A stretch of 64,000 nt of DNA. Source: Nitrospirota bacterium (lineage in GTDB: Bacteria; Nitrospirota; UBA9217). The notes under the pieces were generated by a model that made no database searches, had not been told where the DNA came from, and saw only the letters and a list, made by a program, of their open reading frames with translations. Made by a program: the position numbers and the translations under genes. The DNA lies in NCBI GenBank assembly GCA_963796285.1, contig CAWCKW010000012.1, positions 1,792,001 to 1,856,000 on the forward strand. The letters run 5' to 3'. This document shows, piece by piece, positions 6,802 to 61,365 of this stretch; position 1 is the stretch's first letter, and every line of letters begins with the position of its first letter.

Positions 6802-6873
6802 GCTTAGAGCTTAGAGCATAGAGCTATCAATGCTTCACCCTCAATGCTTTACGCTCTGCCCTCTGCGCTCTGC
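6802..6873. repeat. Inverted heptamer array (TAGAGCW / GCTCTGC), empty
   Basis: GCTTAGAGCTTAGAGCATAGAGC ... ATGCTTTACGCTCTGCCCTCTGCGCTCTGC between tolC and emrA. Confidence 0.7.
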
Positions 6874-8905: not shown

Positions 8906-9036
8906 GAGGATCTCGTAAAAAGTCATTATCCACCGCCGAGACGCGGAGACACGGAGAAGTGCATATTGAAAATAAAGAGGGATTCCCTCTGCGCCTCTGC
9001 GTCTCAGCGGTTAAATTCGATTATTGGGGGTTCATC
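8906..9036. mobile_element. MITE-like palindromic repeat, family R2
   Basis: Ends GAGGATCTCGTAAAAAGTC...GTTCATC flanked by direct ATATTT. Core CCGCCGAGACGCGGAGAC...CTCTGCGTCTCAGCGG. Relatives at 29354-29541 and 63582-63745. Confidence 0.65.
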
Positions 9037-13909: not shown

Positions 13910-16233
13910 CTACCCTTCCAGGATCCTCCGATACAGATTTTTCGTCTGCTCATCCGGTTCGAGATCAATATCCCTGCACAAGGCGCGTTCACACCGTTCA
14001 TAGGTCCGTACCGCCTCCCTGCGCCGGTCGTCAGATTGGTACCGCATCATGAGCCAGCAGCAGGCCTTCTCGTTGCAGGGGTCCGCGATGAACATTTTCT
14101 CGTAGAACCGGAGCGCCCGGTCCCGGTCACCCGAAGACTCGGCGATGCCGGCCGCGTCCTCGAGCGCCCGCAGATAACGGATGCGCAAGTGATCCCGCAT
14201 TGGTGCGGCCCAGTCGCTGTAAATATCTTCAGGCAAAAAATCTCCCGCATAAAGGTCGAACGCCTTCTCATATTCTCCTACGATGTTTTCAGGTTTTCCG
14301 CTTGACTTCATGCGGTCCGTTGTGTCGAGATGGGAAAGCACCTGTCCGACATCGGTCCAGACGAGGTCCCTGTTCAGCATGATGAATCCGTCTTTGTGAA
14401 GAATGCATGAATCGATTATGCCCGGAACGTTCTCCGGCTCCAGCACCTTCCGTACGCGGTGGAACATGCTGTTGAATGTCTGATGGAGCGTGTCAGGGTC
14501 CTTGTCCGGCCATAGTAACTCCATGGCCCTATCGCGGGATACGGTATGTCCGTCCTGGGCAACGAGCAGTTTGACAAATGTCTTTGCCCGCTTGCTTTTC
14601 CACTCGGAGTCCCGTATCGGGACCATTTCCCGAATTGCCCTGAACCCCCCAAGACACTTGATCATAAGAAAAGGCTTTTTGTTCGAACGGGCCTGGTTAT
14701 CGATCAGCGTGGAGCAATAGTCACTGCAGATGCCGTGGGCGAGCGCCGCATTCGCCAGCTCGGCCAGTTCCGCGGCATTGAACAGGGCATAGTAGGTGAA
14801 CCCCCGCTCCCGGCCGATGGAAAAACCTTCCCGCAGGTGTTTGCGGACCCTGTCCGTTTTTTTCATCTTCCCGTAGAGCCGTGCCAGCACGAGGTGGGCG
14901 TTCGCCTCCTGCTGAGCGGCCTTGATCTGCTGAAGCATCTTAAGGGCCGTGAGCAGCTCTGTTTCCGCCTGACAATGCTTTGCGAGCTTCAGGTGGATCG
15001 CGCCGCTCGCGATAAGGTAGATCGCATGGAACAGCTTGCTTCCTGACTGCGTCCGGATCGCCAGGGCATAGTCCGACTCTTTCTTTGCCTGCACCAGCTT
15101 GCCCTGGAACAAACAGGCGATCGCGAGAAGATGGGCGGCGGAGGCGCTGAAAAATTTCCTGTTTCTTCTCCTTTTTTTCCTCTGCGCCGGCATTCCTCCT
15201 CTTCCCCCGCCTTCACAGAACACCTCTCCTCCCCCCCCCCCCCCCACCCCCCCCACTCCCCCCCCCGCGCGGTCACGAAGAGGTTCCTGTCCCGGAGTTC
15301 CTTCACCATTGAGGAAATGGACGCTTTGCCTGATGGCGCGGTGCCCGGCAGGCCGGTCAGCAGTTCGATGAGCGGAACGGGAATGAAGTCCACGATCGCG
15401 GTCTGAAGCAGGAAGCGCTGCATTGCCTGCGGAAGGTGCGCGAAAACCTCCTGCGCAAGATAATCAAAGACGTTGGTCCGGAACCCGGCAGCGCGTTTGT
15501 CGATAAGCGCCAGCGCCCGCGCGCCCGGCGCAAGGGTGGAAAGATATTCGTGCATCAGCACAAGACCGGCCGGCCAGCCTTCCGCCGTGCTGTTGATAAG
15601 CACCGCTTCGTTCACGGAGATGTGCATGCTGAAGACGATGCTGAACAGGTCCTGGACCTCGCCATCGGTGAACCTGAGGTCTTCGCCGGTGAGTTCTCCC
15701 ACGGACTGTGTTGCGCGAAGTTTCGCGATGTCCAGTTCAGGCCGCAACCGTGAAATGATCATGAACCGGACATGGGGCGGGGTGTTGTCGATCAACTGTT
15801 TCATGAGGTGCTGCAGGTCAGGCGAGGTCGATGTTCCGATATAATCGTCGAACACGAGCAAACAAGGCTTCGGGATGTTCCTGAACACCTGCTCGATCCA
15901 GGTGCCGATGTCCTGTCGGACACCGTTGATGCCATAGCGGTTCAGCGGAATGGAGGGAACCGTGGGAACACTCTCAGGCCAGACGCGCCGGATCGCCGTG
16001 CCCAGCGCTGACAGGAAAACCGCGAGGTCCATGTCCTCCTGGTCCATGGTGTACCACACCGAGGGGGCGGCGAGCGACTGGACATGTCCAGCCGCCAGCG
16101 TGCTCTTCCCCTGGCCTGCCTGCGCATGGATGATCACCAGTTTTTTGTCCTCCCACGCCAGGAGTTTGCTCGTGAGCCGTTCACGATCAAGGACGTGAGC
16201 GGGCTTGGGTGGAAGGAACTTGGTAAGGTTCAT
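13910..16233 (-). CDS. MalT-like NTPase / TPR / BTAD transcriptional regulator (disrupted at 15130-15270)
   Basis: N-part HAQAGQGKST, AEGWPAGL, VFDYLAQEVF. C-part KCLGGF...WKSKRAK...LWPD...LYAGDFLPED (wHTH + BTAD). The junction is low-complexity poly-C. Confidence 0.8.
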
Positions 16234-22890: not shown

Positions 22891-22935
22891 GGACAGGAGA
22901 CAGAGGTCAGGGTTCGGAGTTCGGCAGTTCGAAGT
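22891..22935. repeat. Degenerate heptamer array, single arm
   Basis: GGACAGG AGACAGA GGTCAGG GTTCGGA GTTCGGC directly after the tolC stop. Confidence 0.45.
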
Positions 22936-27443: not shown

Positions 27444-27541
27444 TGAATTGCGGATTGCGGATCTCGGATTTCGGATTTTAAATCCGCATTCCGCAATCTG
27501 TTTATGCCAGCGCTCTCGCAAGAGCAGGTACAATCCGCAAT
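27444..27541. repeat. Inverted heptamer array (TTGCGGA / TCCGCAA), empty, with 30-nt insert
   Basis: TTGCGGATTGCGGATCTCGGATTTCGGATTT-T-AAATCCGCATTCCGCAATCTG|insert|CAATCCGCAAT. Confidence 0.8.
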
Positions 27542-32977: not shown

Positions 32978-33337
32978 TTAAATTCTACTCAAAACGGCAA
33001 GAATATTTCTCGCAAAGGCGCAAAGCGCGCAAAGAAAGGCTACATTATTTGTTTTTTTGTAACTATTCAGCTTGCTCGCAATTATTGAGAATAACAACCC
33101 GTTCAGTTCTGCGATAACAACCAGTTTCGTCATTCCCGAACGCTTTAATCGGGAATCCAGAGATTTTTAAGGCCGCTGGATCCCCGACAGGGTCATTCGG
33201 GGATGACGGACATCGGAGACGTGAATAGTTACATTTTTTTAAAGGCCAGTACTAAAGATTTTCTTGGCGTCCTTTGCGGCTTTGCGCGAGACGCCTTTTA
33301 GACGTTGCCTTTTGGTTCCGGGGCTGGTCCGGGTCAG
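32978..33337. repeat. Family R1 repeat interrupted by a MITE
   Basis: Both halves align with 10330-10553. Confidence 0.8.
33059..33232. mobile_element. 174-bp MITE carrying a CGTC-type REP dimer
   Basis: Perfect 11-bp TIR GTAACTATTCA / TGAATAGTTAC, flanks GTTTTTTT / ATTTTTTT. Internal CGTCATTCCCGA...CGGGAATCCAG...CTGGATCCCCG...CGGGGATGACG at 33128-33208. Confidence 0.8.
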
Positions 33338-48153: not shown

Positions 48154-48245
48154 AGTTGCAGGTTTCAAGTTTCAAGTTTAAGGTTCCAAGTCTCGGGTTT
48201 GCAAACTTGAGACTTGAGACTGTTTTTATTCTGAGACTTGAGACT
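48154..48245. repeat. Inverted heptamer array (GTTTCAA / TTGAGAC), empty
   Basis: GTTGCAG GTTTCAA GTTTCAA GTTTAAG GTTCCAA GTCTCGG ... CTTGAGA CTTGAGA .. CTGAGA CTTGAGAC. Confidence 0.8.
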
Positions 48246-48248
48246 ATT

Positions 48249-48680
48249 TTACGGCGATTCATTCAACACCAGCCAGTACAGCCCCAGCTGGTTTACGGCT
48301 TCGGCGAACGAGTTGAAGTCCACGGGTTTTCTGACGTAGCTGTTCGCGCCAAAATGGTAGCTTTCGACGCGGTCCCGGTCCTCGCTCGACGTGGTCAGAA
48401 CAACAACGGGCAAAAGCTTCGTCCGCTCGTCTTTGCGTATGCGCTGAAGCGTCTCGAGGCCGTCCATCCTGGGCATCTTGAGGTCCAGCAGCACTACCTG
48501 GGGCAGGACCTTCGTATCGCGGCCCGCGTACTTGCCGGTCCCAAACAGGTACTCCAGTGCCTCAACCCCGTCCTGCGCGACCACCACCTCATTCATGATC
48601 TTGCTTTTCTTGAGGGCCCGGAGCGTGAGCTGCACGTCGTCGGGATTGTCCTCGGCTAAGAGAATGACTTTTGTCTTCAT
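48249..48680 (-). CDS. Single-domain response regulator (Rcp1-like)
   Basis: ILLAEDNPDD, LLDLKMPRMDG, VLTTSS and GANSYVRKP motifs; GGAGG RBS. Confidence 0.92.
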   Translation of the reverse strand: MKTKVILLAEDNPDDVQLTLRALKKSKIMNEVVVAQDGVEALEYLFGTGKYAGRDTKVLPQVVLLDLKMPRMDGLETLQRIRKDERTKLLPVVVLTTSSEDRDRVESYHFGANSYVRKPVDFNSFAEAVNQLGLYWLVLNESP

Positions 48681-48759
48681 GAGACCTCCGTGAATAGTTT
48701 TCACTTGTAAGTCGCAGGTTTCAGGTTTCAAGTTTCAGATTGGAGAAACAGTTGATAGT

Positions 48760-49173
48760 GTCACTTTTCACATATTGACCTCCACATCGCACCTGAAGAA
48801 CCCAAAGGGATATGAGTCATGAATCCACTGATCATTTTACAGGATTTCGAGACGTATTCACTTGTGAGCAATCTTTCAAAGTCTCTTTATCTAGATATTC
48901 TTGATCAACGGCTATATAAAGTTGAGCTTCACTCATCCCGAGCTGAACCTTTTGCTATCGACAGAAATTGTCCGAGTATCACCGTTTCCGCACCGTTCAA
49001 AACTCTGCGATATTCGACATAACTGACGAACTTGCATTGCGTATCTGATCGCGAAGCCTGAAATCTTTTGAGATACAAGACCCCTTGCTCGGTAATGCAT
49101 AAATATCCTTGCGTCTCTTCACGGTGATTTCTGCCAGGCGTTGATTTCTTCAAATCTCTGATAATGTCGCCAT
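48760..49173 (-). pseudogene. Four-helix-bundle protein (23S rRNA IVP / TIGR02436 family), many indels
   Basis: Manual frame-jumping: MAT.QRFEEINAWQKS...SKDFRLRDQIRNASSSVMSNIAE.FER...QFLSIAKGSA...QLYIA.DQEYL. GAGGAG RBS; 3' end approximate. Confidence 0.75.
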
Positions 49174-49202
49174 GTCTTCTCCTCTAATTTGAGACTTTAA
49201 AT

Positions 49203-49226
49203 CACGCAGGCTGAAGCCTGAGCTAC
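49203..49226 (-). repeat. GTAG-type REP
   Basis: Minus strand reads GTAGCTCAGGCTTCAGCCTGCGTG. Confidence 0.6.
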
Positions 49227-49258
49227 CAATTGACAACCTTTGCAGCTTGAAACAGTCT

Positions 49259-52200
49259 TTACCCCAGCGTAAAATAGACCGTCGTTCCCTTGTCCGTTTC
49301 GCTTTCGATCCACACCCGGCCGCCGTGGCGGTTGATAATGCGCTTGACCGTGGCAAGGCCGATGCCGGTGCCGGGAAATTCCTCGATCTTGTGCAGCCGC
49401 TGGAAGGGGCTGAACAGCTTGCCCGCATAGGCCATGTCGAACCCCACGCCGTTGTCTTTCACATAGAATGCTTCGGCATTCTCCCTGTGGGCGACGCCGA
49501 ATTGTATCACACTCCGGCTTGCTTTTTCACTAAATTTCCATGCATTGGAGAACAGGTTCTCAAGCGCCACGGTCAGGAGGCGGGCGTCACCGTATGCGGT
49601 AAGGCCGTCGGCAATGTCGAATTCCGCGGACCGCTCGGGGTGGCTTTCCGCGAGCCTTCCCGCAACGTCCTTCGCGATGACGCTCAGGTCGACACGTTCG
49701 CGGTTCATTTCGCTTCGGGTGACGCGGGAAAGTTTGAGGAGATCGTCAATGAGGTGCCCCATCCGCACGGTGGCATTCCGGACGCGGTCAAGGTAGCTTT
49801 TGCCCGTATCGTCCAGCTTGTCCACATAATCTTCGAGAAGGGCGAGGCTGAAACCCTCGATGCTCCGGAGCGGGGAGCGGAGGTCGTGGGACACCGAGTA
49901 CGCGAAGGCCTCCAGTTCCTTGTTCATGCTCTCAAGCTCGGTCGTGCGTTCGATCACGCGCGCCTCGAGCTCCTGGTTGAGCTTTTGGATTTCCTCCTCG
50001 GCCTGCTTGCGCTCGACTATTTTCCAGACCGAATCCATCAAGAGCGTCATTTGGTTGGAGTCGCTGTGCGTGTACTCCGCGGACCTGTTGGCAAAGCCTA
50101 CAACCGCAACGATGCGGCCTTCGCTGAAAACAGGGACACTGAAGAAGCGAAGCAATGGCGCGTGGCCTTCCGGATAGCCCTTCTTCAAGGGATGCGGAGC
50201 GGCAAAATCATTTACGATGATGGGCGTGCGCTGCCTGACCACTTCGCCCCAGATGCCGGTTTTTTCGAGCTTGTAATCTGTCTGCGGGTTGGCGATCGTG
50301 CATTCAGCCATCACGTCCTTTGACCAGGCGTGAAGGATAAAATCCTGAGTATCTTCACGGTAGAAATAGAGATAGCCGAACTTGCTGCCGGAAAGAGCGA
50401 TCGCCTCGTCAAGCGCAAAATCCAGCAGCTCCCGCATCGATGCCGCGGGATATTGCGAAATCCTTAAAATACTTTCGGTGCGCGCCTCGTCCTGCCTCGC
50501 GATGTCTTCCGCCTTCTTGCGCTCGGTGATGTCGCGGGCGGCGGCGAACACGCCGATGACGTTCCCCGACTCGTCGCGGTAAACCGCAGCGTTGTACAGC
50601 ACGGGGGTAAGATGTCCGTCCTTGTGCCGGAGTTCGAGGTCGTAGTCCTTGACCGAGCTTTCACGGAACACCTGCTGATACCCCGCGCGCGCTTTTTCCG
50701 GGTCCGTGAAATAGTCGGAGAAATCGGTGCCGATCAGTTCTTCGCGGGACCGGCCTGTCACGGTTTCCGTGGCAACGTTCACGTCAGTGATCTTGCCGTT
50801 CGCGTTAATGGTCACCAGCGGGTCGAGGCTGGCTTCGAGCAGACTGCGGTTGTAGACATTGGCCAGCCGAATGGCTTCCGCCTGCTTGCGCTCGGTAATG
50901 TCCCGGAAGGCGCCGATGACCTTTACGACCCTGCTGTCCTCGCGGATGGCCTTGCCCACGGCTTCCACCCAGATCAAGCGGCCCTTGGCCGTGACCAGCT
51001 GCAGTTCCAGGGAGAAATCCTTCCCCTGCTCGATGGCCTCCTTGACCGCGGCACTGATGAGCGGCACACTCTCGGGCGCGTAGAAGTCAATGGCCGTTTC
51101 CACCGTCGGCGAGAACTCAGCCGGCGACGTTTCGTGGATCCGGTAGGTTTCCTCGGTCCAGTAGAGGGTGTTCTTAACCAGGTCCAGTTCCCACCCGCCT
51201 ACGCGGGCGATGGCCTGGGTTTCATCGAGCAGGGTGGCCGTTCGCTGCAATTCCTCATTCGTCTTCTTGCGTTCGTCGATCTCTTTTTCGAGATCAGCAT
51301 GGGATTCGCGCAATTTTTCCGTCATCGTATTGAACGAGCTGGAAAGCCCGGCGAATTCATCTTGTGCGCCATTTCCGACCCGGTGGCTCAGGTCGCCCGC
51401 GGCAATGGCTTCCGCGCCTTTTTGCAGGGACAGTATCGGTCCGGTAACCGTTCTGGAGATCGCCAGCGCCGCAAGTGCCCCGAAAAACACTATAAAGATA
51501 CCGATGGAGATCACGAGAATCAGCAGCTTCCGGACAGGGGCGAATGCTTCCGATGCATCGATCTTTGTAACCAGCCCCCACCGCAAAAAGGGAATATAGC
51601 GCCACGAACCCAGCACCTCGTTGCCGCTATAATCATACGTAATGCCTGAACCGTTTTCTCCCTGGGCCGCTTTTATCGCCGGGACCCCTATCTGTTTCCT
51701 GCAAAGAAACGACCTTTTTTAATGCCGCGTTCGGATCATGCCGCAGGGGACTCAAAAATAATATCTGGTCCCCTTCCTTTCTGGCAATCAACGCTTCCCC
51801 GGTTGTTCCCAGGCCGGTGGTGTCCTGGATAAATTTGAAAATGGGGACCATATCAATTTCAATGGCGACCGTGCCAATGAAAGCGCCTTGCAGGTCGCGT
51901 ACCGGAGCGATCCCGATCATTTCAGCGCGCCGGTCCTCTTCCATGCCGAAAAAGACATCGGTAAAATAGATTCCTTTTTTGCCTTCCTCAAAGAACGTCC
52001 TGTTTTGAAAAGGTTTGCCCAGTTGAGCGGCGGAGTGCTCGTTATTGCTGGCGTAAACGACCGTTCCCCGCGCGTCCGTGAGCATCACATCCAGATATCC
52101 AGAGGCCTGCTGAAACGTCTTGAGCTGATCGTCCAGGTCTTTCTTGGCCTTCACATATGCGGGGTCGGTACTATCGCGCTGCCGCGCGTTCAAAACAGGA

Positions 52201-52430
52201 AGGTTGCGCCTGATGTTACGGAAATCCTGGGCCGAGCTGAGGTCGGCCTGCCGCTCCTGAAAAAACGCCTCGATCTTGTCTTTCTTGAAGTCCGCGCTGT
52301 TGTTCAGCTGCGCCATACGGACTGTCTTCAAGATGTCCTTTGCGCGCGAAAAGACAAGAGAGCCGAACAGGACAAGCGGGACCAGCGTGAAGGCCATCAA
52401 TAAGATAATCAGTTTTGTTTTAATCGGCAT
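49259..52430 (-). CDS. Membrane sensor kinase Cache-HAMP-PAS-PAS-GAF-HK (frameshifted near 51620-51690)
   Basis: ORFs 51633..52430 (TM + periplasmic domain) and 49259..51616 (YSVSHDLRSP, NAWKF, GTGIGL). Confidence 0.88.
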
Positions 52431-52450
52431 GAGTTAATCCTCAAAAAATA

Positions 52451-52544
52451 AGTCTCAAGTTTCAGGTCTCAGGTTTCGGGTTTCAGGTTTCAGATTTCAA
52501 GCCTTTGTTCGTAACTTGAGACTGTAAACATGAGACTTGAGACT
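52451..52544. repeat. Inverted heptamer array (GTTTCAG / TTGAGAC), empty
   Basis: Seven GTYTCRR-like units, 13-nt spacer, four ACTTGAG-like units. Confidence 0.85.
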
Positions 52545-52925
52545 AAATCCACCTTTCCAGCTCATTCCGTATATGCTTCGTGAATTGGTCCAGGTCCACG
52601 GACTTGTTCAGAAAACTGTTCGCCCCGTTTTTATAGGAGCTGCCTTGTCCGATTCGAGGTCCGAGTGCGTAACAATGATCACGGGTATCGGGCGGAGGCG
52701 TTCATCAGACCGGATCTCGCGCAGGACGTCGAGTCCATCCATGCCCGGCATTTTCAGGTCAAGCAGGATCAGCGAGGCAGCGCGCATCTCCGCCCGGAGG
52801 AACGCCAGGCCCACCTGGCCGCTCGGGGCGGATTCAACCTTGAGGTGTCCCGGCTGATTTTCGTCAGGACCATTTTCGTCGAGCAGGATATCGTCTTCAC
52901 TGTCGTCGATGATGAGGACGCATTT
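52543..52925 (-). pseudogene. Response regulator, multiply frameshifted
   Basis: NKCVLIIDDSEDDILL...LILLDLKMPGMDG...IIVTHS; start codon not visible. Confidence 0.75.
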
Positions 52926-53030
52926 GTTGCGGATTGCGGATTACGGAATTTTATCGGATTGCGGACTTATTCGTCATTGCGGAAAGCGGGAATGCATGCG
53001 GCAGTTTATGAAGCTGTCATTATTGTTCAT

Positions 53031-53389
53031 TTACATTGTCCTTGTTGCCGTTTTGATCGATGAAACTGTGATTGCCAGCAACTCGTCGGCTTCCTTCATG
53101 AGATCTGCTGCATTTGGTGATATTACAATGCCGGAATCTATCAATAGCTCCATCCAATAGATGGATTCATCAGCCTCTTCCTCCATGAATGCCCATTTTC
53201 GCTATAAAATCCGCTGAAGAACGCGCCCTGCATGCCGCCCGATAATTATGCTCCAACCGATGTCCCTGATCGTAATCAATTGTCTTCCAAGAATATCCGC
53301 TGTCTTTCCTTTGGGAGCGATTAAACGCAAATTGAATCACATTCCGAAGCAAATTTCTTCGTCCGTTTTCTCAGATCGTCCTTGTTCAC
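53031..53389 (-). pseudogene. Four-helix-bundle protein (TIGR02436 family), several indels
   Basis: VNKDDLRKRTKKFA...TADILGRQL.RSGTSVGA.NYRAACRARSSADFIAKMGI.EEEADESIYWMELL...MKEADELLAITVSSIKT. Flanked by TTGCGGA (52926-52966) and TCCGCAA (53405-53431) arrays. Confidence 0.82.
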
Positions 53390-53444
53390 ATTCTTCTCCG
53401 CTTTTCATTCCGCAATCCGAAGATCCGCAATTGAACCAATCGCA

Positions 53445-56400
53445 TCATCCCAGCGTGAAAAATACCGTCGCGCCCTTCCCGACTTCTCCCTCGGCCCAGA
53501 CCTTCCCGCCGTGCCTTCGGATGATCCGGTCGACGATGGTGAGGCCTATGCCCGTGCCATCGAAACTCATTTTCCAAATGCAGCCGCTGAAAGGGCCGAA
53601 CATCTTGTCCGAGAAGGCCGGATCGAACCCCGCGCCGTTGTCCCTGACAAAGTATACACACTCGGTTCCCTCTCCGTGTTCGAGGCTGCCGAACTCGATC
53701 CTGGCTTCTCCGTTTCGAGGTGAACTTCCACGCGTTGTCGATCAGGTTTGTCAGGACGACCCTCATCAGGTTCGGGTCGGCAGAGGCCCTGATGCCTTGC
53801 TCATCAGGACCTCAACATTTCTGCCGTGGTCCGTCTCGCGCAGGTTATGGATTGCGGCTTCGGCCATTTTGCTCAGATCGACATCCATGCGGTCGAGTTC
53901 CTGGCGAGATAGCTTTGAAAGGTGCAGGAGGTCGTTGATAAGCTGGGTCATCTTTATCGAACCGTTGAATATGCGTGTCAGATAATCCTTTGCCTGGTCG
54001 TCCAGCTTGTCCGCGTAATCCTCCTGCATGATTTTTGCAAAGCCGGACATGGTCCGAAGGGGCGCTCGCAGGTCGTGCGATACGGAGTAGATAAAGGCCT
54101 CGATTTCTTTGTTCAGCGTCTCAAGCTCCAGGTTCCTGGTCGCCATGTCTTCGGAGAGTTTCAAGAGGTCCTCTTCGGCCTTCTTGCGCTCGGTGATATC
54201 GAAAAACACCACGGCGAAGCGGCCGGGCTCGGTCCGGTAGGCGCTGACCTCGAACCATTTATCGAGGGGGCCGAAGCGTTCTTCGAAATGCGCGGGCTCT
54301 CCCGTGAGAACTACCTGTCCGTACCGCTCGAACCAGACTGGCTCGGCCTTCGGGGAACAGCTCGTGAACTGTTCGGCCGACGATGTCCCCGGACTTCAAT
54401 CCCGTTTGCTGCTCGAACGCCGGGTTGACCGATAGATAGCGGAGATCGACGGGCTTCCCTGCGTCATCCAGGATGATCTCATCGAGCGAGAAGCCTTCGG
54501 TCATCGTCTCGAAGAGTGTCCGGAAACGGTTCTCACTCTCGCGCAACGCCTCCTCGGCCTGCTTCAGCGCGGAGATGTCGGTATTAGTGCCGAACCACCG
54601 AAGGACATTGCCGGCCGAATCCTTCAATGGCAGCACACGCGTCAGGAAGGCGCGGAAAATCCCATCGGCCCCGCGCAGCGGGAATTCCATTTCAAACGGC
54701 TCACCGGTGGCGATCGACGCCTGCCATCGTTCCAGAACCTTCGGCAACGCCTCCGGGTCGTGAACCGATTGCCAGCCCCAACCCTCCATCTGTTCCGGGG
54801 TTGTGCCGGTGTACTCATACCAGCGCCGGTTGTACCACGTGATGTAACCGTCCGCGTTGGCCCACCACGCCAGGTTGGGAATGGAATTGGCCAGGGTGCG
54901 GAACTGCTCTTCGCTTTTCCGCAGCGCCTCCTCGGCCTGTTTTTGAGCAGCTCGTATCCGCAGGATTTCAATACCGTACGCCACGTTATCAGTGAGTTCG
55001 GTCAATAATCTGATCTCGTCTTCGGTGAATGGGTCGGCCTCTTTGGAATACATGGTGATCGCGCCGAAAACCCTGCCATTAGCTCGCAGCGGAAAAACGA
55101 TCGAGGACGCGTAGCCGCGCTTGATCGCTTCTTCGCGCCACGGCGCGAAGGCCGGATCGGTCAGCATATTCCGGCATACGGCAACGTTGCCCATGCGGAT
55201 GGCCGCGCCCGTCGGCCCCCGGCCCCGTTCCGTATCGGCCCAGGTAAGTTTCAACGTTTCAAGATATCCTTCTTCGAATCCTGAGTATGCTGCGGGCCGG
55301 ACCGATTTCGTGTCGTCATTTTCCGCAAATCCGATCCAGACCATGCTGTAGCCACAGTCGTATACGATTATCCTGCAAACGTCGTTCAGGTATTCTGGTT
55401 CGTCCTTTGCTCGGATTACTGCCTGGCTGCTGTCACTCAAAGCCTTGAGCGTCTTGTTCAATCTGAGCAGCGCCTCCTCTGCCCTCTTGCGTTCCGTGAT
55501 GTCAATGTTAACGCCGGTCATGCGAAGCGGCTTGCCTTCGGAGTCCTTGAAGACCCGCCAGCGTCCGGCCACCCAGTGGATGCTGTCATCGGGCCAGATG
55601 ACGCGCCATTCTCCCTCTGTTGGCTCGCCCGTCTCAATGGCTCGAGCATTCAGCCGCATGACCTCGGCACGGTCCTCGGGATGAACAAGATTCTCGAAGG
55701 CCGGCTGCGTTCTGCCGAATTCGCCTGGCTGCAGGCCGTACATCGCCTCCAGCTCCGGTGTCCAGGTGTTCACTCCTGCCTGGACGTTCCACTCGAACGT
55801 ACCGATGTGCGCCACCTGCTGCGCAAGACTCAACCGCGCCTCGCTTTCCCGAAGCGCCTCCTCCGCCCGCTTGCGCTCGGTGATGTCGCTCAGGTTGCCG
55901 CTGCGGTACAGCGGCCGACCGGCGCTGTCTTTGGAAAGGGCCATATGATTGAACAGCCAGCGGTAATCTCCCCCCTTGGTCCGCTGGCGGTACTCCACAT
56001 CTCCCTCGCCGGTCTCCAAAAGACGTTCATGCGCCGCCCGGACCGCGGGCAGATCATCGGGGTGGATCATGGTCAGGACCGTATCGAGCTCGAGCGTCAT
56101 TAATTCGTTTGCTGAAAAACCGGTTACTTTCTCAACCGACGGGCTCATGTACTCGTAACGGCCGGTTTGCACGTTCAGTCGGTAAATAACATCAAGAGAA
56201 TTGTCCAGCACGGACCGGAAGCGCTCTTTGCTCTCCCGGAGCGTTTGTTCGGCCTGCTTGCGCTCGGTGATGTCACCGACAGTACCGACCAAGCTCACTG
56301 CCCGCTTGTCCGCGCCTTCGCCCTCGAAGGTGGCGATGCCATGAGCTTCTATCCATCGCAGTGCGCCGTCCGGACGGTTGATCCGATACTCCGCGGCGTA

Positions 56401-59400
56401 TGGTTGCGGGTCAACGGGGTTCAAAGCCGCCTCCACCCGGCCCACAGTCGGGCAAGTCATCGGGATGGATGCTCTGCGCGAGGATCTCGTCGTTCGGTCG
56501 GGTATAGCCGCTGACACCGAAGATCGCCTTGTACCCGTCGTCCCACTCCGAGATGCGCGTAATGGGGTTGTATTGCCACCATCCCAAGTGCGCCGCGTCC
56601 AGCGCTATCTGACGCTGCTGGGCAAGCGTCTGAATTTCGTACTCGGACTTCTTGCGCCCGGTGATGTCGTGCGCGATCTTGGACGCGCCGATAATCTTGC
56701 CGCTCGCATCCTTGATGGCGGAGAACGTAAGCGACACGGGGATGATCGAACCGTCTTTCCGCATGCGCACGGACTCGAAATTCTCGATATGTTCTCCCTG
56801 TTTGATCCGTGCGAGAATTTCGGGTTCCTCGTTAATGTGCCCCGGCGGAATCAGGAGAGAAATATTCCTCCCGATTACCTCCTCTGCCTTATATCCGAAG
56901 ATATTCTCCGCTCCCACGTTCCACGTCTGAATGATACCGTCCTGGTCCTTACCGATAATCGCGTCATCCGCGCTCTCGACGATCGCTGCCAGACGGCCCA
57001 GTGCCTTTTCCGCTTTCTTGCGCTCGGTGATGTCGTGAGCGACGTGAACAGAACCGATCATCTGTCCCTTATCGTCATAAAGCGGGGTCGTGCTGATGAT
57101 AAAGTCTCCCCCAAAGCGATCTTCATGCACTTCTTCTATGTGTTGACGGCCGTCCTTAATAGTTCTGGCATGAGGGCAGAAAGCGGGCGGACAGGAAAGA
57201 CCGTGCACGGATTCATAGCAATGTTTGCCGATACACTCCTCGGGCGTGAGCCCCAGTTTCCGAGCCATGGCCGCATTCACCCGTTTGATGCGGTGGTTAT
57301 TGTCCAGGATCGCGATCAGGTCGGGAACGCTGTCGAAGGTCCGCTCCCACTCTTCTTTGGCCCGAAGTACGGATTCCTCCGCCCGCTTGCGCTCGGTGAT
57401 GTCGTAGGCGTAAATGCGGACAACATTGAATTGAGGCATGAGATGGACGGTCATGCCGAAAACGCTGTCCCTGACGACTCTCTCGCGATAGATGAGATTT
57501 TTCTTTTCCCCCTCCCAGATCACGTAAAATGTCGTCCATGTCTTCGGGCAGGAACACGGCTAAATCTTCTGTGTCCATCCCCAGGTTTGCCAGAACTTTT
57601 ACCGTGGCCGGATTACAGAAGTTGATCTTACCCGAGGAATGCACTTCGCAAATGGGATTCGGGTTCAGCTCCGGGAAAGAGGCAAGATGCCGCGTGCGCT
57701 CCTCGGACTTCTTGAGTTCGGATACGTCGTTATAGGTGATGACGACGCCCTCGATGCGGTTGTCCGCGGTGCGGTAGGGCAGGGTCGTGCGGACATACCA
57801 TGCGCCGCCCAGTTCAAGCTCCTGACGCGCGGGCACGAGACGTTCTAGGACCGCCTGAGCGTCGGAGGTGAGGTCGGGACCGAGGTTTTCCTGCGACATG
57901 TCGGCGATGGGACGCCCCACGTCCGAGGGCAGGAGTTTGATGAGCTTGAGCATCGCGGGCGTGAAGCGCTTCACCCGGAAGTGAGTATCCAGGAAGATCG
58001 TGGGGATGTTCGCGCTCGCGAGGAAATTGTTCAGATCGTCGTTCGTGGTCTCCTGTTCCTCGATCTTTCCCTGGAGCTGCGAGTTAACGGTGATCAGTTC
58101 TTCGTTCAACGACTGGAGTTCTTCGCGGGAAGTCTCAAGCTCCTCGTTCGCGGCCTGCAATTCCTCGTTCGAGGACTGGAGCTCCTCGTTCAGGCTCTTG
58201 AGCTGTTCGATGTGGCTCTGAAGATCCTGGCGTGTGGCCGAGAGTTCGCCTTCGAGCTGATGGATCGCGGTCTCCTCGATGACGGTGGCATCGACCTGCT
58301 CGGCGGCATCCTCCTTGGAGAGCGACGCCTTTCTCCTGAAAAACGACGATGAAAAGGTTCTCCGCTGCTTTCGTGATCCGGAGCGAAATTTGTCTTACCG
58401 GCTGCAAATCCCCCCTGCCCCCCTTTGCTAAAGGGGGGATGATTTTACTTCCCCCCTTGGAAAGGGGGGACCGAGGGGGATTTTCACCCGCGACAGGGAG
58501 ACTTGCCCGTATTGAAACGGTTTTCCCCTCGTGGCTCGACCGGTAGAGCGCCCCGCGAATCCTGCTCCGGAGATTCTCGGGCAGAAGCTCGAGCAGGTTC
58601 TGCGTCGGCACGCCCCGGGGCTGGAGGAGATATTTGTTCGTGGGGCCGTTGTGGTAGATGATCTCGTAATTCTGATCTATGGCCACGGAAGCGGGCGCGT
58701 ATTCTTCGAGCAGTTTTTCCTGGACGATTTCCGTGAAGGACCGTCTCTGCTCCGCGAGCTGCGCCTGTTTCGAGGCTTGTTGCGCCGAACGTTCAGCCGC
58801 ATACGGGACCGAGATGGGCAGGCGCGATGCGGGTTTTGTCTCAAGCTTCCGGTAGACGCGGCACTGCTTGTGGCCGATCGATTGGAAGAGCCTGCTTTTT
58901 TTGCCCACGGTTTCCGCGTTCCCGAGGAAGAGAAAGCCCCCCTCGTTGAGCGCGTAATGAAAAAGGGTGATGCATTTTTCCTGGGCGTCGGGCTCCAGGT
59001 AGATCATGAAGTTGCGGCAGATGATGAGGTCGAGCTTGGAGAAAGGCGGGTCGGTCAACAGGTCCTGCCGGGCGAAGACCACGGTTTCCCGGACTTCTTT
59101 GTTGATGACGAGAAAGTTGCCGTCCTCGGTTGGCATGAAATATTTTTGAACGTACTCCTGCGGCACGTCCGCGGCGATGCTTGCGGGATACTTGCCCTCG
59201 CGTGCCCGCTCCAAGCGCCCGCTCGTTCACGTCCGTGGCAAAGACGTGGACGTCCCGCTTTTCCCCGGCAAGAGCAAGCTCATGCAGAAACATCATGGCG
59301 ATGGAGTAGGCCTCCTCGCCCGTGGAGCTCGCCGGGGTCCAAACGCGGATGGGAAGGTCGGTGTTCCCGGCCGCGATCTTCCGGACCGCCTCCAGGTTCA

Positions 59401-61238: not shown

Positions 61239-61365
61239 AAATTCCAAATTACAAATTCCAAATAATATCCAAATTCAAAATATCAATACTCGAAACTCGT
61301 TTTAGTTATTCGGTCATTCGTGCTTGAAATTTATTCGTTATTTGATGCTTGGGATTTAGTGCTTT
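61239..61365. repeat. Inverted heptamer array (AAATTCC / GGRATTT-like), empty
   Basis: AAATTCC AAATTAC AAATTCC AAAT ... TATTTGATGCTTGGGATTTAGTGCTTT. Confidence 0.65.

Follow-up and report, generated by a model that had tools for sequence, protein, structure and literature searches.

Candidate intervening-sequence-type hairpin cassettes carrying four-helix-bundle genes between the cistrons of a Nitrospirota signalling operon

In this work we analysed a 64,000-nucleotide stretch of DNA (hereafter the window) from a Nitrospirota bacterium of the lineage UBA9217 (assembly GCA_963796285.1, contig CAWCKW010000012.1, positions 1,792,001 to 1,856,000), in which four successive gene junctions of a signalling operon carry tandem repeats of about 7 nt in inverted arms, either empty or enclosing a four-helix-bundle gene of the PF05635/TIGR02436 family. 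Judged from its sequence, the design of these cassettes is that of the intervening sequences (IVSs) bearing an open reading frame (ORF) in 23S ribosomal RNA (rRNA), here present as IVS-type cassettes in messenger-RNA (mRNA) operons. As a rule, the gene lies in host operons with a heptamer array on either side, each the mirror image of the other, and gene-less hairpins are the commoner form. The PF05635/TIGR02436 proteins form a very large family without an assigned function, and a single frame is offered for three puzzles, namely the function of this family, the unexplained intergenic heptamers of several phyla and the origin of the rRNA IVSs. The finding also bears on annotation and on operon biology, since such inserts may split polycistronic transcripts.

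Between 45.7 and 56.5 kb, the minus strand of the window presents a succession of PAS histidine-kinase and response-regulator genes. Four successive junctions of this operon, which we call A to D, all carry tandem repeats with a period of about 7 nt, in agreement with the initial annotation of this DNA. Inverted arms, also claimed there for the four junctions, are clear at three of them; at the remaining one, B, the partner arm is degenerate, and it is a comparison with a relative that shows it to be real. Junctions A and C are gene-less as had been stated, and both are short hairpins on the minus strand. The hairpin of junction A (48154-48245; GTTTCAA / AGTCTCA units) lies between the response-regulator stop (48249) and the next kinase start (48146), with arms of 18 nt that are 89% complementary and a sense-strand RNA fold of -21.4 kcal/mol (z -2.6). 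That of junction C (52451-52544; GTTTCAG / AGTCTCA units) lies between the kinase start (52430) and the response-regulator stop, with arms of 32 nt that are 75% complementary and a fold of -31.8 kcal/mol (z -3.8).

Junctions B and D each enclose a PF05635/TIGR02436 gene oriented as the operon, which also had been proposed, and both genes are frameshifted here. In cassette 2, at junction D, the 3' arm in operon sense (52926-52983, minus strand; ATTGCGG units on the plus strand) and the 5' arm (53405-53431, minus strand; TCCGCAA units on the plus strand) have a 12-nt perfect core. The flank inverted-repeat (IR) score of this cassette is 30, above the 99.9th percentile (28) of the 3000 random segments on which the score was calibrated; these came from the window's own genome, G000 (3.58 Mb, 96% complete), the other G-numbers denoting relatives of the same bacterial family. 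In cassette 1, at junction B, the 3' arm in operon sense (48705-48741, minus strand), found by TRF, has GTTTCAG units on the plus strand, and the 5' arm (49188-49253, minus strand) consists of GTTTCAA and AGTCTCA remnants, between which some 40 nt bearing a small hairpin of their own have been inserted. Taken alone, this partner arm has an IR score of 20, around the 90th percentile and not above chance. In the orthologue of junction B in G004 (92% identical), however, an intact GTTTCAA/AGTCTCA array occupies the same place, and therefore we read the partner as a decayed arm with an insert of about 40 nt.

To compare the junctions, the operon DNA was searched in 40 relatives and the fetched loci were aligned. 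The expectation that orthologous junctions would be absent, empty or filled in different relatives was borne out. A filled junction B occurs in the window and G004; in G005, G003, G024 and G021 only about 32-38 nt separate the two genes there, and these contain no repeats. At junction A, G004 has an array longer than that of the window, G005 a different word (GTTCAGA), G002 arms around an unrelated 130-nt loop, and G020 and G022 only some 31-40 nt. In G003 the same junction is filled by a four-helix-bundle gene 74% nucleotide-identical to that of cassette 2, with AATGCGG arms of the cassette 2 type. Junction D of G009 encloses, within GTTTCGA arms, a gene related to that of cassette 1 (72% over 187 nt). 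The flanking genes are 70-92% identical among relatives, and 84-92% among congeners, while the junction states differ. These aligned states also support the proposal that the empty arrays represent the cassette element without its gene. Furthermore, in the sequencing run X2 one DNA contig joins position 48700 to 49258 through 18 heptamer-like letters at a depth of 4.8. This contig hints at a cassette-less relative, although joints at a likeness below 95 can stem from other organisms; the best sequencing runs hold at most 30% of the words of the stretch, as contigs, and the one RNA run holds 5%.

Both cargo genes of the window are broken in this assembly. The gene of cassette 1 (48761-49173, minus strand), with a GGAG Shine-Dalgarno motif just upstream of its ATG at 49173, reaches 42.8 bits against PF05635 (cut-off 33.8) when three stops are read through. 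Compared with G004 it has at least seven indels, including a loss of 2 nt in NIAEG, the most conserved motif, and it also shows indels against the contigs of three sequencing runs. The gene of cassette 2 (53031-53389, about 360 nt, minus strand) is a divergent subtype whose fragment 53031-53186 scores 24.7 bits against TIGR02436 (cut-off 24); its intact G004 orthologue of 109 amino acids (aa) reaches 81 bits with TIGR02436 and 56.8 bits with PF05635. The two proteins had been described as divergent, and indeed BLASTP finds no alignment between the G004 orthologues of the two. Neither window gene keeps the intact ORF of about 110-130 aa expected for the family, since both are split by frameshifts. 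Neighbouring kinase genes also carry occasional indels, and therefore some of these gene breaks may be assembly errors, but for the cassette 1 gene a density of seven indels in 350 nt speaks for genuine decay. Next to the cassettes, a large kinase gene is split in two (51633-52430 and 49259-51616), with the contigs of run X2 one base short at 51694, and a frameshift also affects the response regulator at 52545-52920; such breaks are either assembly indels or real decay of the operon.

With regard to the proteins, PF05635/TIGR02436 was the only domain recognised among the profile matches of the cargo, and no catalytic domain appeared among them. In an alignment of 32 family proteins, Y17, Q34, N45, E48 and E71 are invariant and W6, R37, S41, G49, S68 and Y84 nearly so, these residues forming the motifs Q-x-R-R-A-x-x-S-x-x-x-N-I-A-E-G and G-S-x-x-E. 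Such a constellation of polar residues suggests a defined binding or active site in the four-helix-bundle family. An intact protein of G000 has 117 aa. The solved relatives 2gsc and 2rld contain five chains each.

The packaging observed in the window is a general feature of the gene family. Within the bacterial family to which G000 belongs, 48 of the 61 genomes have PF05635 matches. For a family survey, 116 of the 150 PF05635 matches listed were typed, those with internal stops or short model coverage being excluded; four lying too near a contig start were dropped, and the first 60 of the remaining 112 were fetched. A second, cross-phylum survey was built from an alignment of nine sequences and is limited to the subfamily with the motif RA[AV][VA][SF][IV]P[AS]NI. 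It comprised 80 named loci, 78 of which were scored after two were dropped for short flanks, and these span Bacteroidota, Patescibacteria, Chloroflexota, Planctomycetota, Acidobacteriota, Cyanobacteria, Proteobacteria, Bacillota, Verrucomicrobiota and others, with many soil and water bacteria among them. An IR score of at least 28 was reached at 47 of the 60 four-helix-bundle genes of the family, compared with 2 of 314 control segments of the same length from the same loci, and 60 of the 78 cross-phylum genes were IR-flanked, compared with 4 of 279 control segments; pooling both surveys, 107 of 138 genes were flanked. By comparison, only 9 of the 1301 predicted G000 genes of 80-200 aa reach 28, two of them being four-helix-bundle genes and two GxxExxY genes.

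The arms themselves are most similar to themselves at a lag of 7 nt in 84 of 120 cases in the family survey and in 99 of 120 in the cross-phylum survey (8 nt in 17 and 16 of 120, respectively), and the predicted enrichment of inverted period-7 arms at genes of the TIGR02436 family held in both surveys against their controls. The arm words differ greatly from locus to locus, and the two arms of a locus are mirror copies down to variant units. In addition, both neighbours lie on the strand of the gene at 39 of 55 scorable family loci and 56 of 70 cross-phylum loci, and both are opposite at only 2 and 1, which fits a cargo that rides on host transcription.

The initial annotation had also regarded gene plus arms as one unit, and this is supported. 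Among the 60 family loci, 73-100% of the pairs with a protein identity of at least 70% have similar arms, whereas below 50% only 1-2% do; arm similarity thus tracks protein identity, and a given combination of gene and arms can be met at more than one junction and in contexts that are unrelated. Most arm-similar pairs occupy orthologous contexts, and for this reason many cassettes are regarded as old residents across genera. Nevertheless, some pairs of loci in unrelated flanks also have protein and arm type in common (for example L077 with L079, and L036 with L046), which indicates that the whole unit of gene and arms was moved or duplicated. From these comparisons we infer that the cassettes are mobile.

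A stricter suggestion, that each protein subtype may recognise its own heptamer, found no support beyond this co-inheritance. Over 44 cross-phylum loci the Spearman coefficient between word and protein was -0.077, a value reached by 86 of 2000 permutations. The four pairs with identical words have a mean protein identity of 64%, compared with about 49% overall, and several same-word pairs lie at 39-52%, that is, at baseline identity. A weak correlation of this kind is what co-inheritance predicts, and it lends no support to a recognition code. Moreover, arms of the CAGGAGT type were found at none of the seven four-helix-bundle loci of G000, though this type has 35 arrays in the genome.

Heptamer arrays are abundant in G000. 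Using a detector with a threshold of 12 self-matches out of 14 at a lag of 7 nt, and a shuffled genome as control, we obtained 215 raw arrays (176 after merging) compared with 7 in the shuffle, and 46 period-8 arrays compared with 2. A partner, defined as a 14-mer of the reverse-complement unit with at most two mismatches within 150 nt of the array, accompanies 55 of the 176 merged arrays, while the reverse-only and complement-only controls gave 6 and 3 of 176. According to gene calls that are rough, the arrays make up 158 loci, of which 106 are at co-directional junctions, 33 inside gene calls, 11 at divergent and 8 at convergent junctions; the junctions of G000 as a whole number 2628, 414 and 417 for the co-directional, divergent and convergent types. 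This distribution argues that the heptamer arrays are not ordinary terminators.

The commonest gene-less type, with 42 arrays, is ATTGCGG-like and matches cassette 2. These 42 arrays share their units alone, with loops, unit order and unit number all variable. A reading as miniature inverted-repeat transposable elements (MITEs) or insertion sequences was rejected, given that same-word copies have no common loop or interior; as the loops are not conserved, the gene-less copies are not copy-paste MITEs. A strand-specific signal was found in the single arms of co-directional junctions: of 38 loci, 24 have an arm rich in purines on the sense strand and 4 one rich in pyrimidines, and many of these arms resemble repeated AGGAG. 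The purine-rich arm comes first in 36 of 47, 34 of 60 and 43 of 54 elements in three sets. We considered this order as evidence for a role in RNA and dropped it, because the order of an inverted repeat is unchanged by reverse complement and, being strand-symmetric, it is uninformative on the direction of transcription.

Another aspect to mention is the distribution of arrays with respect to the gene. The same detector was applied to samples of five further genomes of the family, giving six genomes in total, some of them kin. In the three genomes without PF05635, each 98-99% complete, we found 2 arrays in 400 kb (G055), 1 in 400 kb (G050) and 1 in 241 kb (G021). In those with PF05635 there were 7 in 400 kb (G076), 24 in 400 kb (G005) and 176 in 3.58 Mb (G000). 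The counts of both groups separate completely, and the contrast is present even within a genus, G050 lacking the gene with background arrays and G076 having both. Thus, the anticipated co-occurrence of heptamer arrays with TIGR02436/PF05635 was observed among these six related genomes. In G021, which lacks a four-helix-bundle gene but carries four GxxExxY genes, heptamers are at background, and consequently the heptamers follow the four-helix-bundle gene and not the GxxExxY cargo. The converse, period-9 arrays following GxxExxY genes in a double dissociation, was not seen, G021 having a single such array. Taking the earlier interpretation as a whole, the unit of gene and arms, the gene-less forms and the co-occurrence are supported, while the protein-heptamer code is not, nor, in part, is the description of the system as undescribed.

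The reading that we favour is that of IVS-type hairpin cassettes residing in mRNA operons. Each cassette would consist of a PF05635/TIGR02436 gene, probably without a promoter of its own, in the loop of a long stem whose arms are mirror-image arrays of approximately 7-nt repeats, the whole being inserted sense-wise between two genes of a host operon; the gene-less arrays would be the same element without its gene. The arms would pair within the operon transcript, and the host RNase III would cut the stem, by analogy with experiments on 23S rRNA IVSs described in PMC4990558. Such a cut would set the cassette RNA free while the cistrons on either side stay usable, and in this way the insert would be tolerated. 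The element may then persist and occasionally spread as selfish DNA while its gene decays, as both window genes have done, and gene-less hairpins may arise by loss of the loop or spread independently. That the arms pair, that RNase III excises the cassette RNA and makes the insert tolerable and that the element persists as selfish DNA is, taken together, a proposition to which we give slightly better than even chances. In an intact G000 cassette both the minimum-free-energy and the centroid fold pair the arms across about 400 nt, and an RNase III gene (rnc) is present in G000.

Several points weigh against this reading. The fold of the whole cassette is no more stable than that of shuffled sequences (z -1.2). 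Among the stem mismatches in the sense strand, G.U pairs (52) do not significantly exceed A.C (36), transversions being dominant (144), and without a significant excess of G.U a selection on the RNA stem is not demonstrated. The 23S rRNA gene of G000 carries no large insert (3002 nt compared with a model of 2925 positions). Cleavage of the mRNA between cistrons could also harm the host. Finally, tolerance through RNase III accounts neither for the tandem-heptamer composition of the arms nor for the loss of the arrays along with the gene.

The co-occurrence of arrays and gene favours the main alternative, which is centred on the protein: in a partnership of protein and repeat resembling REPIN-RAYT systems, the protein, whose relatives form pentameric rings, would bind the tandem heptamers as single-stranded RNA or DNA and would be needed to spread or maintain the hairpins, the filled cassettes being autonomous and the empty ones non-autonomous. 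The behaviour of the six genomes, with background arrays in the three without the gene and frequent arrays in the three with it (G050 and G076 included), the independence from GxxExxY genes in G021, the co-inheritance of gene and arms with the same type at different junctions, and the match of the commonest gene-less type to cassette 2 are all consistent with it, as are the five chains of 2gsc and 2rld and the invariant polar residues Q34, N45, E48 and E71. However, six genomes, some of them kin, are few, and the recognised domains of the cargo are limited to PF05635/TIGR02436, with none that is catalytic. The weak cross-phylum link between protein and heptamer fits co-inheritance, the 35 CAGGAGT-type arrays have no counterpart at the seven G000 genes, and in the window the arms of both genes, together with the empty hairpins nearby, have outlasted the breakage of the genes themselves. 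We consider this partnership possible, though doubtful. Its broadest form would make the four-helix-bundle pentamer the trans-acting partner of bacterial heptamer repeats, with roughly one subunit for each single-stranded 7-nt unit, required to generate, spread or maintain the hairpins, so that PF05635, the 23S IVSs and the intergenic heptamers of many phyla would belong to one selfish protein-plus-hairpin system, mechanistically of a new kind; this we offer as a speculation that is rather unlikely to hold.

The other two explanations leave the protein aside. On the one hand, the repeats could be of the host, regulatory or born by replication slippage and retained between genes for a role in RNA such as stability, processing or ribosome standby, with the gene as a passenger that preferentially lands or survives in their loops. 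The arrays exceed the genes by about 20 to 1, most of their loci are at co-directional junctions (106 of 158), the single arms tend to be purine-rich in the sense strand, many of them AGGAG-like, and members of one word family differ in their loops and in the order and number of their units; besides, heptamers have been proposed as regulatory sites in Geobacter (PMC2700814) and Beggiatoaceae (PMC4679880). A general slippage, however, would be expected in related genomes without the gene as well, where the arrays are at background, and neither the flanking of 107 of 138 surveyed genes, nor arms that mirror each other down to variant units, nor junction states that change between congeners whose flanking genes are 84-92% identical speak for a passenger; we think this explanation improbable. 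On the other hand, the arms could act in DNA, as single-stranded or cruciform sites of the attC or REP kind moved by a recombinase or nuclease encoded elsewhere, for instance the PD-(D/E)XK protein of GxxExxY genes. All three GxxExxY genes of G000 are themselves IR-flanked, the arm sequence varies widely with the structure kept, and the purine-arm-first rule, being strand-symmetric, fits a DNA feature equally well. Still, G021 has GxxExxY genes and only background heptamers, no target-site duplication or sharp end is visible when filled and absent junctions are compared, and no recombinase turned up beside the cassettes, although no search aimed at recombinases was made. Such a DNA-level element seems to us very unlikely.

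Besides the four operon junctions, the window contains other arrays. Those listed by the initial annotation at 6802 and 27444 are inverted and that at 22891 is a single arm, as stated, whereas that at 61239 is direct only. At 27444-27500 (plus strand) a gene-less hairpin of the ATTGCGG type directly follows a stop codon (-40.6 kcal/mol, z -3.6), and at 6802-6873 (minus strand) a weakly stable inverted hairpin of GCTTAGA / CTCTGCC units occupies a co-directional junction. A further gene-less hairpin, with 8-nt units (GAGACRCG), lies at 8938-9009 on the plus strand and was absent from that list. The single arm (22891-22935, plus strand) has GTTCGGA-type units, and the direct AAATTCC array (61239-61263, plus strand) has no inverted partner or hairpin in the sense RNA (z +1.05). 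Two other repeats were seen, a run of about 36 C residues, 82% pure, at 15231-15266, and a 21-nt tandem repeat of 2.6 copies at 58138-58191, probably within a coding region.

Elsewhere in the genome, the intact cassette L163 (G000:C12:142738-143091) has the purine-rich arm units CAGACGA, CAGAAGA and GACAGAT; its 3' arm extends right up to the start codon of the gene that follows, and no Shine-Dalgarno motif can be seen. At G000:C12:537770-537900, a G-rich ATTGCGG/ATTTCGG array is followed directly by pyrimidine-rich CTGACTC arrays, which belong to a different word family and are not complementary to it. At G000:C10:73053-73325, a near-perfect inverted repeat of 20 nt, devoid of heptamers, surrounds a 91-aa ORF that looks GIY-YIG-like by eye (IR score 65).

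The closest known system is the ORF-bearing IVS. For Coxiella, PMC4990558 describes a sense-oriented S23p ORF in a stem-loop with a 28-bp terminal inverted repeat, cut midway along the stem by RNase III in vitro, with an AG-rich stretch and two to three tandem GACAGAT heptamers, variable in copy number among strains, upstream of the ORF. According to the same source, the IVS of Coxiella burnetii is at helix 45 and its ORF is decaying, IVSs of Leptospira, Brucella and Xanthomonas are also cited, older proposals of a transposition remnant or mobile element are mentioned, and the origin is described as still open, with work from 1990 and 1993 cited (PMC4990558). The cassettes described here are alike in the S23p cargo, which is PF05635, carried in the loop and sense to the host transcript; in terminal inverted repeats able to form a stem of at least about 20 bp (cassette 2 with its IR score of 30, the arm of cassette 1 being decayed); and in purine-rich tandem heptamers of variable copy number in the 5' region and an ORF prone to decay. 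Even the GACAGAT word reported for Coxiella is found in an arm of L163. The cassettes differ in lying between kinase and response-regulator genes and not at helix 25 or 45 of the 23S rRNA, and in that both arms are whole heptamer arrays of many words, with hundreds of gene-less copies per genome. Short ORF-less IVSs may parallel the gene-less hairpins. The design, heptamers included, is therefore known from ORF-bearing 23S IVSs (PMC4990558), and the label undescribed holds for the location, none being in print between protein genes within the sources at hand; the literature searched, which did not cover subscription journals, gave no description of this cassette class outside rRNA.

Comparable repeats include the STRR repeats. 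Abundant intergenic direct repeats of the heptamer TAACTGA have been reported in Cyanobacteria and Beggiatoaceae (PMC4679880). As in our case, these are abundant intergenic 7-nt tandem repeats of unexplained origin and patchy phylogenetic distribution, but they are mostly of one word, in direct orientation and upstream of start codons, and the passages of that paper considered here describe neither a gene cargo nor a link to a four-helix-bundle gene. In Geobacter metallireducens, paired tandem heptamers are listed as putative regulator sites (PMC2700814). The five tandem heptamers drawn there as paired strands are likewise intergenic and multicopy, and their CTGA core resembles the CTGAAAC units found here; in contrast, they are presented as protein-binding sites, without a link to four-helix-bundle genes or IVSs in the passages considered here.

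Avd, an accessory protein of diversity-generating retroelements, has its fold superfamily and pentameric ring in common with the four-helix-bundle cargo. Avd binds nucleic acid. Nevertheless, an intact G000 protein scores only 20 bits on NF033474 (cut-off 80), and the ORF list between 46500 and 55500, which comprises kinases, regulators and two small genes, includes no reverse transcriptase or template repeat, although no profile search for reverse transcriptases was made. The GxxExxY (TIGR04256) genes of G000 are also enclosed by inverted short-repeat arms, with IR scores of 51, 40 and 33 (G000:C12:1321466-1321813, C12:332635-332973 and C1:83716-84056, respectively); their cargo, in contrast, has a PD-(D/E)XK fold, and two of these three cassettes have arms made of CGCAAAG words spaced by about 9 nt. 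A single arm of this CGCAAAG type is present in the window at 33009-33036, and 122 doublets of the word occur genome-wide. Finally, REPIN-RAYT systems, in which REP doublets go together with a REP-associated tyrosine transposase, differ from our cassettes in their cargo, an HUH Y1 (IS200/IS605-like) transposase and not a four-helix bundle without a known catalytic fold, and the repeats found here are short tandem units of many words per genome whose loops are not conserved. Both systems, however, present a small gene within its own inverted repeats, many intergenic gene-less hairpins and a repeat type that goes with the lineage of the gene.

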